From an uncultured Candidatus Saccharibacteria bacterium (GTDB lineage: Bacteria > Patescibacteriota > Saccharimonadia > Saccharimonadales > CAYOYH01), in NCBI GenBank assembly GCA_964579475.1, contig CAZOFP010000006.1:1-53764 (forward strand): DNA of 53,764 nucleotides. The letters are read 5' to 3'. Positions 17,744 to 49,194 of this stretch are shown in pieces; position 1 is the stretch's first letter; each line of letters begins with the position of its first letter. The translations under genes were made by a program, and so were the position numbers. The notes beneath the pieces are model-generated. The model ran no database searches and had not been told where the DNA came from. It saw nothing but the letters and a program-made list of their open reading frames with translations.

Positions 17744-17840
17744 CACAACTTCAGAATTAATTCTGAAGTTGTGGGAGTAGTATGATTTAACGTACTACTA
17801 CTGTTAGTTTTGGGTAGTTATATAATTAATTATATAACTA
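17744..17840. repeat. Bipartite palindromic element, copy A
   Basis: Perfect 30-bp palindrome CACAACTTCAGAATTAATTCTGAAGTTGTG (17744-17773) and perfect 26-bp palindrome TAGTTATATAATTAATTATATAACTA (17815-17840); centres 69 bp apart. Confidence 0.85.
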
Positions 17841-18317
17841 AGTTAGCTGCATAATTGTATAGCTGTGCTCGGTGTGTTTGACGAAAGGCTCTAACGCAGA
17901 GCCTGCAATGAAGACGGTCGACGTGTTGTCGTTCGGGTGGAAGCCAAGTTCTTTTTCGTGAGTTAGTTCTTCGTCGACGACAACCATGACTTCCCCACTG
18001 TCTGCGTGCAACAAACTAAAAAGTGAAACCGCTCCAGGCGTTACACCCAAGACCCTTTTCAAAACTTCGGGTTTCGCAAACTCCAGTTTCTTCAGGTTCA
18101 GCGCTTCGCTTACTTGCTTCGCCTGGAGACGTTTGTCGCCAGACATAATCACCAGCACCAAACCCTCGCCTTTTCTTTCGCGAAGTAAAAGGCTCTTTAC
18201 CGGTACTTTGTCGTTCATAACCTTTTTCGACTCGGCAACAGTAAACACAGCCTCGTGCTGCTGCTCACGAAACTCGATACCTAGATCACTAAGCACCCCA
18301 AAGATACGACTTTTCAT
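17838..18317 (-). CDS. YbaK/ProXp-ala family aminoacyl-tRNA trans-editing deacylase
   Basis: HEAVFTVAES, VKSLLL, LGVTPGAVSLFSL, FHPNDNTST motifs. Confidence 0.85.
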   Translation of the reverse strand: MKSRIFGVLSDLGIEFREQQHEAVFTVAESKKVMNDKVPVKSLLLRERKGEGLVLVIMSGDKRLQAKQVSEALNLKKLEFAKPEVLKRVLGVTPGAVSLFSLLHADSGEVMVVVDEELTHEKELGFHPNDNTSTVFIAGSALEPFVKHTEHSYTIMQLT

Positions 18318-26377: not shown

Positions 26378-26634
26378 TAGACAATAGACGATAGATTCTG
26401 GAATCTAGAAAAGTTGAAACGTGCCGACGAAACAGCGAAAACGACAAACTAGGTTATATAACTTATTATATAATTACTTCATTTCTACTCTGTTTTTAGA
26501 TAAAGCATAGCAACCAACATGGTTATATAATTAGATGTTCGACGATGAAATCTAGATTTCAGTTTAGCTCTTGTGTTCTTTTAATCGCTACTGGCTTCTT
26601 ATTCTAACGTCTAGAACCTGTTGTCGAACGTCTA
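26378..26634. repeat. Intergenic cassette bracketed by inverted heptamer arrays
   Basis: Left arm TAGACAA TAGACGA TAGATTC TGGAATC TAGAAAA (26378-26412); right arm TTCTTAT TCTAACG TCTAGAA CCTGTTG TCGAACG TCTA (26596-26634); internal palindrome TGAAATCTAGATTTCA 26546-26561. Confidence 0.75.
26452..26533. repeat. Bipartite palindromic element, copy B (degenerate)
   Basis: GGTTATATAACTTATTATATAAT, 47-nt spacer TACTTCATTTCT..AAAGCATA.., then GTTATATAATTA 69 bp after the first; aligns with 48659-48737. Confidence 0.8.
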
Positions 26635-36263: not shown

Positions 36264-37487
36264 TTACTGATTTAGAAGTTTAACCGCTTCATCGAGCTGC
36301 GGATCGGTCTTGTTTTCGTAGTCTGCATCAGTGAATTCAACAACTACAGCTGGCTCGATACCTTCATGGTCAATATTTACACCTTCCGGCGTATACCACC
36401 TAGCAATAGTAACTTTCAGCACGCCACCAGCTCTGAGTTCTTCGAGAGCCTGTACGCTGCCTTTACCAAAACTCGTTTCGCCAACAAGTGTTGCGGCCTC
36501 ATAATCTTTGAGTGCTCCAGCTACGATTTCGCTAGCACTAGCACTACCTTTATTGATTAGTAGGACAGTCTCAACACCTATTAGTGGGCCGTCGCCCTGT
36601 GATTTCAGGCTTTGGGTTACAACATCGCCCGACCGCTGTTCAACGACCAGAGTACCATTTGGTAGCCATAACCCGGCCACATCTACTGCTGCATCCAGGA
36701 AACCACCACCGTCATTTCTAAGGTCTAGAATGACTTTTTTCACACCTTGCTGGGCGAATTCATCGGCTGCCTTTTTGCTAAGAGAAGCTGTGTCCTCCGC
36801 AAATCTGGCAATTTTAATATAGCCGATTCCGTCCTCGCGAACTTCACTGGTAACACTCGGTACTGTTATTTTTTCCCTCGTAATTGTGATGTCGAGTGCC
36901 TTGCCGTCTCTAGCGATAGACAAAGTTACATCTGTTCCTTCTTCGCCGCGAATTTTAGAAACTGCTTCTTCAATGGAAATACCATACGCGTCCTCGCCAT
37001 CTATTTGTACAATCACATCACCGGCTCTTACGCCAGCTGCTTGCGCTGGGAAGCCGTCCAGAGGTGCAATTATAACTATGCGATCATTTTCAACACCGAG
37101 TTCAGCACCGATACCGGTGAATGTTCCGTTAAGCTCGTTCTTGAAATCTTTAGCCTCGTCTTCGCTAAGGTAGATGGTGTACGGGTCGCCAGCAGACTGA
37201 GCTAAGCCTTTTTTTATACCATTCATGACATCGTCAATGTTCAGTACGCCGTCATACTTTCTGCGCAGAGTGTTGTAGAGCTCATCCACCGATGAATAAT
37301 CTAGCTCGTCAGGTAGTTTGGAGTTTGAGCTGTTAACAAAAGTGTTGGTAATACCTGAGTAGATGTCGCCCCATCTGTTCCCTAGAATGAAAGCAAATAA
37401 CGCAATAATTATAATAATTCCAATAATGTTCGATTTGGAATTCCAAATCGACTTCTTCTCAACCACCACGTCTTGGTTCTTTTCCAC
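36264..37487 (-). CDS. ctpA: S41A carboxy-terminal processing protease (PDZ)
   Basis: TM, GDPYT, GIGA PDZ, DLRNDGGG, SASASEI, SFGKGSVQ; GTG start at 37487 chosen. Confidence 0.9.
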   Translation of the reverse strand: MEKNQDVVVEKKSIWNSKSNIIGIIIIIALFAFILGNRWGDIYSGITNTFVNSSNSKLPDELDYSSVDELYNTLRRKYDGVLNIDDVMNGIKKGLAQSAGDPYTIYLSEDEAKDFKNELNGTFTGIGAELGVENDRIVIIAPLDGFPAQAAGVRAGDVIVQIDGEDAYGISIEEAVSKIRGEEGTDVTLSIARDGKALDITITREKITVPSVTSEVREDGIGYIKIARFAEDTASLSKKAADEFAQQGVKKVILDLRNDGGGFLDAAVDVAGLWLPNGTLVVEQRSGDVVTQSLKSQGDGPLIGVETVLLINKGSASASEIVAGALKDYEAATLVGETSFGKGSVQALEELRAGGVLKVTIARWYTPEGVNIDHEGIEPAVVVEFTDADYENKTDPQLDEAVKLLNQ

Positions 37488-46876: not shown

Positions 46877-47272
46877 CTAATTCTGAGAACCCCAGAAATC
46901 ACGTGCTGCACGTTTCCTGATTCTGCTAAACGCGTTCTTCCTACTACCCTTTTTTGCTTTTAGCTTTTTATCTTTTTGTTTCTTTAGCTGGTTTTTAAGC
47001 TTTGCCTCGACAATATCTACCGCCGCAAACATATTGATAGTCGATTCGCTTGCAGCAATCCTGTCGCCTGGCACATCAAGAATAACTTCGCATTTGTTAC
47101 GACTTTTGGTCTTACTGCCTAGCTCCCCAAGCTTTACCTCAGCGTGAACGGACTTCCTAGCCTTCCTCGTCATATATTTATCGAGCTTGCCAATCTTAGT
47201 ACGTACGTATTTTGCAAGATCGTCAGAGACTTCGTAGCCGTTTCTTCCAGTAATTTCGATATTGCCAATCAT
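46877..47272 (-). CDS. hpf: Ribosome hibernation promoting factor (RaiA/HPF)
   Basis: IEITGRN..VSDDLAKYV..KIGKLDKY, MFAAVDIVEAKLKNQL; upstream of secA. Confidence 0.88.
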   Translation of the reverse strand: MIGNIEITGRNGYEVSDDLAKYVRTKIGKLDKYMTRKARKSVHAEVKLGELGSKTKSRNKCEVILDVPGDRIAASESTINMFAAVDIVEAKLKNQLKKQKDKKLKAKKGSRKNAFSRIRKRAARDFWGSQN

Positions 47273-48567
47273 AACTGCTCTACACCTCCCATATATTTTT
47301 GTAATACTTTTGGAACATTCACTTTGCCGTCTTTGGTTTGGTTATTTTCGATAATCGCAACCATTCCACGACCTAGCGCCAGAGCTGTTGCATCAACGGT
47401 GTGAATCAAAACGGTACTGTTGTCGGTCTTTACCTTGGTATTTAGTCTCCTCGACTGATAATCGGTCATAAAATCTGCTGTGTGCGTTTCACGGTACTTA
47501 CCCTGGCCAGGCAACCAAACATCCATATCTACACCTCTGAAATTTGGCTTGCCAATATCGGCGGTACACTTTAAAAGCTTCCGGTACGGTAGTTTTAGTT
47601 CGTTTAGTAAATGTTCCTGAATAGCAATCGTCAGCATATGCTCGTCCATGCCGCTGTCCGGGTGGGCAATAATCTCCATCTCGAGTTTATCGAACTGATG
47701 CATCCTGATGATGCCTTCCATATCCTTGCCGTAAGTTCCAGCTTCTTTTCGAAAACTCGTCGCGTAGCCAAGGTAGCGTAGGGGTAAATCGTCCGAGGAA
47801 ATAGTTTCATCGGCATGCATAGAACCAAGTACATGCTCGGCACTACCTTGCAGCCAAAGCTCCTCGCCTTCTATCTTGTAGCGGTCTTCCCTGGGTTCTA
47901 GCCGATCCATACCGTCGAACATTTCTGTTCGTATCATATACGGCGGGATTACCGGAACGAATGGTTTGCTGGTGACGCTAAGCCCTGCCTCTTTAATGAT
48001 TTTACCTAGAGTTTCTTCGTCCGTGACAACGTCTAGAACGTATTGCATCAGCGCGAACTGTAACCTGACTAAGTCACCCTTAATATAAGCAAAACGAGCA
48101 CCGGACACTTTAGCGGCTCTTTCCTTGTCTATCCAGTCGCGTTCTTGAGCTATAACCCAGTGGTCTTTTGCCTCGAAGTCAAAAGACGGTTTTTCGCCTT
48201 TCTCATAAACAACCTCGTTCTGTTCTTCACTTGCACCAACGGGCGTATCCTCGCTAGACATATTTGGTACAGCTCTATGCAGTGCGTCAAACTCTACCTC
48301 TATCGGGTCGAGTTTACTCTCAAGCTCTTGGAGCTGCTGCTTCAGCTCTTTGCTTCTTGAAATATCTTCGGCTGAGGGTTTGTTGCCGGCACCTATACTA
48401 CCCGATAGCTCGTTGCGTTTGGCTCGAATTTTATCAATTTCAACAGTTAACGACCTGCGTTGTTCGTCGAGTGCTAGGAGCTGTTTTACGTCTACTTCTA
48501 TGTTCTTATTTGCGGCATTTTGCTGTACTTCGTCTAAGTTGCCACGGATATATTTAATGTCTAACAT
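47269..48567 (-). CDS. serS: Seryl-tRNA synthetase
   Basis: MLDIKYIR, N-terminal coiled arm, AAKVSGARF, SFRKEAG..GIIRMHQFDKLE, DYQSRRL. Start at ATG 48567. Confidence 0.96.
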   Translation of the reverse strand: MLDIKYIRGNLDEVQQNAANKNIEVDVKQLLALDEQRRSLTVEIDKIRAKRNELSGSIGAGNKPSAEDISRSKELKQQLQELESKLDPIEVEFDALHRAVPNMSSEDTPVGASEEQNEVVYEKGEKPSFDFEAKDHWVIAQERDWIDKERAAKVSGARFAYIKGDLVRLQFALMQYVLDVVTDEETLGKIIKEAGLSVTSKPFVPVIPPYMIRTEMFDGMDRLEPREDRYKIEGEELWLQGSAEHVLGSMHADETISSDDLPLRYLGYATSFRKEAGTYGKDMEGIIRMHQFDKLEMEIIAHPDSGMDEHMLTIAIQEHLLNELKLPYRKLLKCTADIGKPNFRGVDMDVWLPGQGKYRETHTADFMTDYQSRRLNTKVKTDNSTVLIHTVDATALALGRGMVAIIENNQTKDGKVNVPKVLQKYMGGVEQL

Positions 48568-48658: not shown

Positions 48659-48737
48659 GGTTATATAATTAATTATATAACTACTCATTTCTCATCTGTA
48701 TTTACTACAAGCATATACCCTATTATGGTTATATAAC
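48659..48737. repeat. Bipartite palindromic element, copy C
   Basis: Perfect 22-bp palindrome GTTATATAATTAATTATATAAC (48660-48681), 46-nt spacer TACTCATTTCT..AAGCATA.., then GTTATATAAC (48728-48737). Confidence 0.85.
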
Positions 48738-48738
48738 T

Positions 48739-49194
48739 TTATTTTGACGCTGAAACAATTTCGTTTACCAGTGTCTCAACAGCCGAATTAATATGCTGGT
48801 ACATCCTGTCGAAACCGTCACTCCCGTAATATGGATCCTCAACCTCGCGCGTATCTAGCAATTGTACTTTTTCATAATTTTTTGCATCAATAATCTGTTT
48901 TACACCAGCTACATTTGCGCGATCCATACAAATAATCATGTCGAAATCTTCCCCGTCATCCTTAGTTAGCGGACGTGACGTTTGCTGCGAGATATCAATA
49001 CCATTTTTCGTCATAACCGTTTGCGATCTTAGATCTGGCGCACTCCCCTGGTGCGCACGAGTAGTTCCTGCACTATCAATAATGAAATCTTTACCTTCAA
49101 CCTTTCCCGTGTTCTCAAGTTTATTTCGCAAAATTCCTTCAGCCGCAGGTGAACGGCAAATATTTCCCATACAGACGAATAGGATTTTGGTCAT
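48739..49194 (-). CDS. Low-molecular-weight protein tyrosine/arginine phosphatase
   Basis: P-loop VCMGNICRS, DSAGT, DPYY. Confidence 0.92.
   Translation of the reverse strand: MTKILFVCMGNICRSPAAEGILRNKLENTGKVEGKDFIIDSAGTTRAHQGSAPDLRSQTVMTKNGIDISQQTSRPLTKDDGEDFDMIICMDRANVAGVKQIIDAKNYEKVQLLDTREVEDPYYGSDGFDRMYQHINSAVETLVNEIVSASK

Follow-up and report, generated by a model that had tools for sequence, protein, structure and literature searches.

Predicted AbrB/MazE-fold operator arrays as candidate portable cassettes in the intergenic DNA of a Saccharibacteria genome

We analysed a dispersed palindromic repeat that occurs three times in the window, i.e., the whole stretch of 53,764 nucleotides, which is contig C6 of the host genome G000. 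The account that we favour, with some reserve, is that of portable operator cassettes: binding arrays of a predicted AbrB/MazE-fold protein would have been copied to 34 intergenic loci and kept there as boundaries. The repeats match the sequence in front of a stand-alone AbrB-like gene on contig C17; therefore, they are likely docking sites for its 61-aa product, P0001. The family works like a multiplied mazEF/vapBC operator and looks like a REP family, and it lacks the traits that define REPINs, TIR elements and toxin-antitoxin operators.

Materials and methods

G000 (872 kb, 98% complete) consists of 25 unordered contigs, which carry C-numbers; it was assigned to the order Saccharimonadales through a homologue, bearing a name, of one of its proteins. 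The 22-mer is called P1, and P2 and P3 are two other palindrome families. G-numbers denote the genomes compared, among them the congener G001, and L-numbers denote single loci compared. Sites were placed at junctions and relative to ORFs with a crude ORF caller (ORFs of at least 100 aa). For the spacer set, a search at lengths of 44–50 nt in G000, G041 and the metagenome loci gave 59 distinct sequences; the A/T-rich metagenome contigs L031, L037, L048, L049, L116, L131, L132 and L140 were excluded from the spacer analysis. A near-palindrome upstream of a homologue was defined as at least 9 of 11 pairs within 130 bp of the gene.

Results

Three copies in the window

The window contained 3 matches to the 22-mer at up to 3 mismatches, compared with 0.00 in 100 shuffles. 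Copy A opens with a perfect 22-bp palindrome (48660..48681), in which TTATATAA cores begin at 48661 and 48673, 12 bp apart. A 46-bp spacer on the plus strand (48682..48727), with TCTGT at 48695–48699 and GCATA at 48711–48715, leads to a second site (48728..48737) with a single core at 48729–48736, which places the second GTTATATAA at +68, exactly as in the preliminary description of this DNA. Copy B had been described as a repetition of the same layout. Its 47-bp spacer (26475..26521, plus strand, TCTGT at 26489–26493) and its second site at +69 (26522..26531, single core at 26523–26530) agreed with this. Its first site (26453..26474) is an imperfect palindrome, with 3 mismatches to the 22-mer and a non-palindromic centre, and both TTATATAA cores, at 26454 and 26466, are intact. 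Copy C had been described as inverted, and it is more than a simple inversion of the others. It has a perfect 22-bp palindrome (17817..17838) and a 47-bp spacer (17770..17816, minus strand), but its partner (17748..17769) is a different palindrome, the P3 sequence ACTTCAGAATTAATTCTGAAGT, with 7-bp cores 11 bp apart and arms that reach 17744–17773, and its internal motif is flipped, ACTGT being found at 17800–17804 on the plus strand.

Copies A and C do abut stop codons. The gene for a low-molecular-weight phosphotyrosine phosphatase (LMW-PTP; 48739..49194, minus strand) ends at copy A with its TAA 1 nt away from site 2, and a YbaK/tRNA-editing family gene (17838..18317, minus strand) ends in copy C, the last base of which lies within the TAG stop codon. 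The serS gene (47269..48567, minus strand) starts approximately 90 bp beyond copy A. Two other palindromes were seen in the window, namely a perfect 16-bp palindrome at 26546–26561, 15 bp past site 2 of copy B, and a perfect 22-bp palindrome at 37430–37451 inside an S41 peptidase gene, which is single-copy in the genome.

The repeat family across the genome

The genome-wide search that had been proposed as a check returned 43 matches at up to 3 mismatches in 34 loci; 15 of them were exact, 27 had at most one mismatch and 36 at most two. Pair spacing was measured as well, and doublet spacers were 45–49 bp long. P1 resolves best into a pair of TTATATAA cores at a distance of 12 bp; in G000, the distance between cores had its peak at 12 bp (38 times) for P1 and at 11 bp for P2 and P3. 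The unit is composed of two cores, the 45–49-bp spacer and then one or two further cores or a paralogue's palindrome. P2 was found at 13 loci and P3 at 5 (strict pattern), either alone or partnering P1 at equal spacing.

A spacer scan over 30–69 nt peaked at 45–48 nt, with a shadow at +12, and 52 of the 59 distinct spacers were 46–47 nt long. TCTGT was present in 54 spacers, 44 times in direct orientation approximately 15 nt from the full site and 10 times inverted, and the inverted spacers look as if their first ~30 bases had been flipped; neither orientation was present in the remaining 5, and shuffled spacers pass at 5%. TCTGT was also considered as an extended -10 box and rejected: this fits one copy (C10:17636), but in most copies the hexamer that comes next was seen on inspection to be without its last T. 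Sites of the integron attC, dif and res types, judged by their consensus, were discarded because the repeat has no complementary inner boxes, its centre is symmetric and its neighbours are housekeeping genes. A literature search for the LexA motif found no paper, and no replication or transcription strand bias of the motif was evident in G000.

None of the 43 P1 sites in G000 lies deep in an ORF of at least 100 aa. The 32 occupied junctions were tandem in 19 cases, convergent in 8 and divergent in 5, none significantly off expectation; the convergent excess had p = 0.053 with the crude ORF caller and was not significant. A stop codon lies within 15 nt of 13 sites, and many sites are located 50–150 bp upstream of a start. 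Site orientation is free relative to the flanking genes, which have no evident common function. Other repeats occur as well. A further repeat of ~110 bp, with ~11 copies, often stands beside P2 or P3 and gives mosaic intergenic regions (L146:740-870, C2 and ~10 other places); G000 also has very many copies of a 7-bp tandem unit of the TACCGTC type, and related short tandem units occur 3' of the gene upstream of gatB in G000, G001 and L098.

A candidate AbrB-like protein and its promoter

We searched for genes between palindromes and found 59-aa ORFs with P2 on both sides (C5:888) and with P3, the partner palindrome of copy C, on both sides (C2:1537, an AbrB-like paralogue). A third homologue, which encodes P0001 on C17, has a P1-type array approximately 30 bp upstream. 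This array overlaps the TATAAT of its own gene's promoter and, with 3 mismatches, is less perfect than the 15 exact dispersed copies. That is, self-symmetric cores lie over the gene's own promoter, which is the arrangement of an operator. Similarly, in G016 the only P1 match at up to 2 mismatches directly precedes a homologue, and on a metagenome contig another homologue is preceded by four cores in 12-bp register. The preliminary description had offered a two-site protein-binding module as one of its readings; this reading is supported, and P0001 is the candidate protein for it.

P0001 matched the Pfam MazE_antitoxin model at E 2.5e-4, below the cut-off, and the protein of L043 scored above it. 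The AbrB-family model TIGR01439 was matched by 8 of the 41 members of the P0001 alignment. Close homologues were found at 79–93% identity. In the Atlas, the first hits of P0001 (0.93) belonged to PF04014 clusters. The structural model of P0001 (pLDDT 88) covers all 61 aa, and Foldseek with this model returned MazE and AbrB as top hits at E > 0.1, none at E ≤ 0.001. In the PDB, a sequence search with P0001 alone gave 0 hits and a profile search gave E values of at least 0.46. Pfam, Atlas, model and Foldseek agree, at modest scores, and the cognate gene is thus predicted to encode a swapped-hairpin protein.

The C17 gene is convergent with a nucleoside deoxyribosyltransferase gene. On inspection, the downstream neighbours of 37 homologue genes were unrelated, with no common toxin gene, and PemK/MazF was not found in G000. 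In this inspection, the PemK/MazF search and the model, the co-transcribed toxin and toxin-binding tail that mark a toxin-antitoxin operator of the mazEF/vapBC kind were not found. As for the MraZ box, no TTATATAA core was present upstream of the window's mraZ. In L184, L186, L188 and L191, from four genomes, TTACGTAA-type abrB genes stand directly upstream of a glmS-like gene (inspection), and the P2-type abrB gene of G000 also precedes glmS (inspection). At L146:1789-2393, genes of 71 and 129 aa resemble a Phd/Doc pair on inspection and are divergent from the P3-flanked abrB paralogue.

Core type and the beta1-beta2 loop

Homologues of abrB were found in 21 of 91 genomes and, in addition, in all five hand-picked genomes. 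A near-palindrome was present upstream of 24 of 37 intact homologues, whereas the counts downstream and far upstream were 2 of 37 each and shuffles gave 6%; the 37 remained of 43 loci after 6 had been left out as broken or without ATG, yet two of these 6, L155 and L162, look intact. Core type tracks the beta1-beta2 loop across the order. TTATATAA was present upstream of 8 of 9 long-loop proteins vs 0 of 28 short-loop proteins, a test that is partly circular in that L043 and the G016 gene were reached via the motif and G041, G133 and G264 were chosen for their sites; the unbiased long-loop cases are only G017 (two cores), G060 (one) and G068 (none), and cases from related genomes do not count as independent. 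TACTAGAA arrays stand upstream of the three proteins whose loop is NSNGTY, loops of the xxGxxS/T type go with TTACGTAA, and 7-bp cores go with other loop types. In VapB2 of R. felis, the end of beta1 and the beta1-beta2 loop are described as reading the bases, with one dimer per internally palindromic half (PMC3326315), and the mazEF operator is described with three dimer sites (PMC4333400).

Dispersed sites and genes also occur together. The exact core doublet was found in 6 of the 91 genomes; these 6 belong to the 21 that have a homologue, and the count among the 70 without one was 0. The TTACGTAA doublet was found in 2 of the 91, both of which have it in their own operator, and G090 has three further dispersed copies, in two of which the spacer motif of the G000 cassettes comes next. 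At least two matches to the P2-type core pattern were seen in four genomes only, which have homologues; three genomes without a homologue hit had a single match, the same as in the control. There are exceptions: the long-loop protein of G068 has no upstream core, G060 and G068 have the gene and no dispersed doublets, G380 (92% complete) has 2 exact doublets and no long-loop gene that we could find, G055 has one doublet and a short-loop protein only, and the long-loop-like copy of G090 is broken. In the congener G001, the highest-identity match to P0001 has an internal stop. Finally, L199 (G090:C6:1-1781) combines a TTATATAA array, a TTACGTA array, a CATCTGTT motif and another TTATATAA-type array within ~100 bp.

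Retention and turnover in relatives

Of 401 genomes of the order, 6 had P1 at up to 2 mismatches (36 sites in G000, 15 in G133, 6 in G041, 3 in G264, 2 in G380 and 1 in G016), and the congener G001 had none; a phylum sample of 401 genomes added one genome with one match. The exact 22-mer had 4 isolated hits over 185,579 species genomes, none by a Y1-like ORF on inspection, and 0 in viral contigs. The P2/P3 pattern was confined to G000 among 261 genomes. A metagenome scan yielded 111 P1 loci; some are identical to G000, and many have ~65–85% nucleotide identity, as in related species. P1 was at the orthologous place in 27 of the 44 usable non-self metagenome loci anchored in G000, which are not mutually independent and do not include L058, left out for a coordinate error. 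A lone P1 was observed between two apparent tRNA genes in G041 (L010:659-680, inspection), and metagenome contigs of 18–29% GC contain a repeat that includes the CTAG-centred 22-mer and is otherwise unrelated in its surroundings.

Both sites of copy A, TCTGT and the spacing are conserved at the serS/LMW-PTP junction of L044 and L139, and the 22-mer is conserved in L137 as far as the available sequence reaches. Compared with L044 and L139, the palindrome is identical at 22 of 22 positions, the spacer at 31–33 of 47 and the left flank at 13–15 of 40. The lone core of site 2, which is too short for a stable hairpin, is likewise kept in both. The P3-P1 hybrid of copy C is kept in L061, with 2 changes in P3. 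The preliminary description had held that a sequence fixed at its loci in distant relatives would speak for an ordinary operator; sister species do keep copy A, and the junction is empty in the congener.

Orthologous loci also differ, although shared repeats had linked some of the groups compared. A flip of the internal motif separates C3:51207 from L079 and L051 from L057, the whole unit is inverted between C5:61437 and L078, and the partner is swapped between C1:84585 and L067. Before gatB, the sequence of L098 is longer by 126 bp that include a full doublet, and G000, G041 and G002 have no doublet there. Because orthologous sites are kept yet flipped, inverted, swapped and gained, the cassette is both retained and turned over, and the claim of a lineage-specific, dispersed element with gains and losses is supported. 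In an alignment of contigs from four runs, no indel or joint was seen at copies A–C among those listed, a result that has no bearing on mobility. An apparent joint between copies C and B was rejected as a misplaced C19 copy because its middle letters are those of the C19 spacer.

Copying of operator sequence

In G133, 15 of 15 sites equal the genome's own operator, centre included, and one of them, 16 kb away, carries ~65 bp of the gene's 5' end (RBS region and first codons). In G000, 31 of 37 core doublets have the centre TTAA. Identical centres, the copied gene start and the block indels point to copying, and the dispersed sites would thus be copies and not independent gains by point mutation. 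The resident TIR-type Y1 nuclease is a tentative candidate for the copying enzyme, and we would not rely on it.

REP/REPIN features and Y1 nucleases

The repeat resembles REP, BIME and REPIN elements in that it forms dispersed intergenic doublets ~70 bp apart that are patchy, often located at stops, and gained and lost (PMC3116915, PMC8266576); it is multi-copy and intergenic, with a fixed-distance doublet. Membership in this class, as had been proposed, was not supported. The conserved REP foot is given as GTAG (PMC8266576), and GTAG was found at 5 of 43 P1 sites, the commonest flank being AACATA/G. REPINs are defined by a long hairpin across the doublet (PMC3116915); here, each palindrome folds on itself, the spacer ends remain unpaired and no single long hairpin forms. 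A further difference is that the cassette flanks are direct, whereas REP flanks are head-to-head, and that the cassette sequence matches the promoter array of a DNA-binding protein; no cognate RAYT was found.

A Y1 or RAYT gene flanked by the P1 palindrome was sought in G000, at the Y1 loci of relatives and, with a Y1 profile, over the 111 metagenome P1 loci (31 with 300-bp flanks), and none was found; nor was any Y1 gene present in the available sequence, up to 1.5 kb on each side, of 43 abrB loci. One Y1 C-terminal fragment was detected ~220 bp from a palindrome (L119, among the metagenome loci). The window is free of Y1 transposase genes, as had been noted, and the sole one in G000 lies on C22, with an odd-centred palindrome containing GGGGTGAC on both flanks. 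This palindrome fits the TIRYT consensus GGGGWSAS (PMC3733652, PMC6006769), and P1–P3 do not. Six Y1 loci in G001, G133 and G264 have TIRs similar to the C22 type and not to P1.

The likeness to TIRtrons (TIRYT, TnpA-Y1 subclass 2.1; PMC3733652, PMC6006769) is that such a system is present in G000 with its own TIRs dispersed, that both show 11–12-bp expansions and that TIRs occasionally neighbour operator sites. For example, G133 has 5 TIR copies at a distance from its Y1 gene, 3 of which have an operator site within 150 bp, and a TIR lies ~58 bp from P3 on C2. In 5 of 7 Y1 loci, CTGT/ACAG is at or beside the TIR foot. However, the TIR, of the GGGGTGAC type with an odd centre, flanks the Y1 gene and is unrelated to P1–P3. 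The distributions of sites and nucleases also differ: G041 has 6 sites and no Y1 gene that we found, and G001 has 2 Y1 genes and no sites. The C22 gene (L001:1252-1990) is intact, encodes 208 aa, has long palindromic TIRs and stands beside parA; a homologue beside parA also occurs in G001 (L008), suggesting vertical retention. TIR-like copies are dispersed on C1, C2, C14 and C24.

Discussion

We propose that a P0001-type protein binds the cores, which we consider probable from the match between repeat and promoter array. By analogy with MazE/VapB structures, one AbrB-fold dimer would bind each TTATATAA core and two would bind the 22-mer, and P0001 would repress its own promoter. The array, often with the fixed-length spacer module, was likely copied into intergenic DNA, where selection likely keeps cores and spacing. 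The weakest step is the use of the sites: the bound protein might bend or loop the 69-bp unit and form a roadblock or insulator between transcription units, which we regard as somewhat less than an even chance. Bending or boundary use is nevertheless the likeliest use because the sites abut stops, stand in either orientation and have no promoter preference. A further reason is that a search of the 98%-complete G000, the single genome tested, returned no HU/IHF and no Rho hit over the cut-off, a lack that need not be special to carriers.

Three other explanations were weighed against copied operator cassettes. An ordinary regulon, in which an AbrB-like global repressor gained promoter operators gene by gene, is unlikely in our view. 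It would account for the array over TATAAT at the protein's own gene, the G264 operator directly upstream of an Eco47II-type restriction gene and the many G000 sites upstream of starts, and AbrB of B. subtilis is described as binding hundreds of sites (PMC3025583). However, the 8 convergent junctions among the 32 hold no promoter, no common role of the neighbouring genes is evident, the sites face either way relative to these genes, and the identical centres, copied gene start and block indels point to copying. We hold an orphan REP- or TIR-like selfish repeat spread by a Y1 enzyme (RAYT/TIRYT) acting on ssDNA hairpins, with the abrB promoter as the birthplace of the family, to be a little less probable still. 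Its dispersed, intergenic, patchy, stop-abutting sites and its hybrid dimers with length-conserved spacers resemble REP dimers (PMC3733652), and the G133 TIRs near sites, the CTGT/ACAG feet and the Y1 fragment in L119 are in its favour. However, no Y1 gene is flanked by P1, P2 or P3 or found around the abrB loci, the GTAG foot is infrequent and the long hairpin is missing, sites and Y1 genes occur apart in G041 and G001, and the loop-to-core code and the retention of a lone core are left unexplained.

RNA hairpins serving as terminators or mRNA stabilisers are the least credible explanation, and we give it very little weight. Sites at stops, the lack of a Rho hit and the strong folding of copy C (z -9.1) fit it, whereas the 22-mer is almost all A/T (DNA hairpin -3.6 kcal/mol), the folding of copies A and B is weak (z -2.0 and -1.5), a search around A returned no terminator-like site, Rfam gave no match in the window, and some operators have non-pairing centres or single cores.

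The operator cassettes may be compared with several known systems. Like P0001, AbrB/Abh of B. subtilis, Sso7c4 of Sulfolobus and cyAbrB2 of cyanobacteria are stand-alone AbrB-fold proteins and are described as genome-wide binders or chromatin proteins. Their consensus is loose or absent, whereas cassette sites are exact, long, countable and apparently copied. The matS/MatP, SBS/SlmA and NBS/Noc systems have tens of palindromic sites per chromosome and one protein each; they are like the cassette in site number and palindromy, but the folds are unrelated and their sites are single and short. The cassettes are also like the 'cab' operator of E. coli mazEF and the vapBC2 operator of R. felis, with which they share the predicted protein fold, A/T-rich arrays of self-symmetric cores over the gene's own promoter, a core of the TATA type and a palindrome each half of which is itself palindromic (PMC4333400, PMC3326315). 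Unlike in these, P0001 has neither a toxin-binding tail nor a shared toxin neighbour, its paralogues differ in loops and cores, and the operator is present at up to 34 loci, where it pairs with paralogues' operators. A literature search, which covered few subscription journals, listed no Saccharibacteria paper on the repeat.

An orphan repeat family thus gains a candidate protein, and the repeat becomes accessible to tests that need no more than 61 residues of protein and 22 bp of synthetic DNA. The paralogues as a set would amount to a natural code of specificity in the AbrB fold, a fold whose DNA-recognition data are described as under-represented (PMC4333400). The family also shows how an autoregulatory operator might turn into a repeat found throughout a genome, and it gives access to the question of how transcription may be punctuated or DNA organised in the reduced genomes of Patescibacteria when HU and Rho are missing. 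A broader and decidedly speculative extension, which we doubt more than we believe, is that Saccharimonadales possess a tiny stand-alone AbrB toolkit with a loop-to-sequence code and exchangeable two-site cassettes with an invertible core, which would together serve as a lineage-specific chromosome-boundary system, addressed by sequence, in cells without HU or Rho; part of that extension is a repeat family defined by its DNA-binding protein and not by a transposase.

At G264:C1:154500-157400 (L228), an operator, an Eco47II-type restriction gene, a C5 methylase with a MerR-type HTH and an abrB gene with its own operator stand in this order, and the AbrB protein of G264 may act like the controller protein of this Eco47II-type system.
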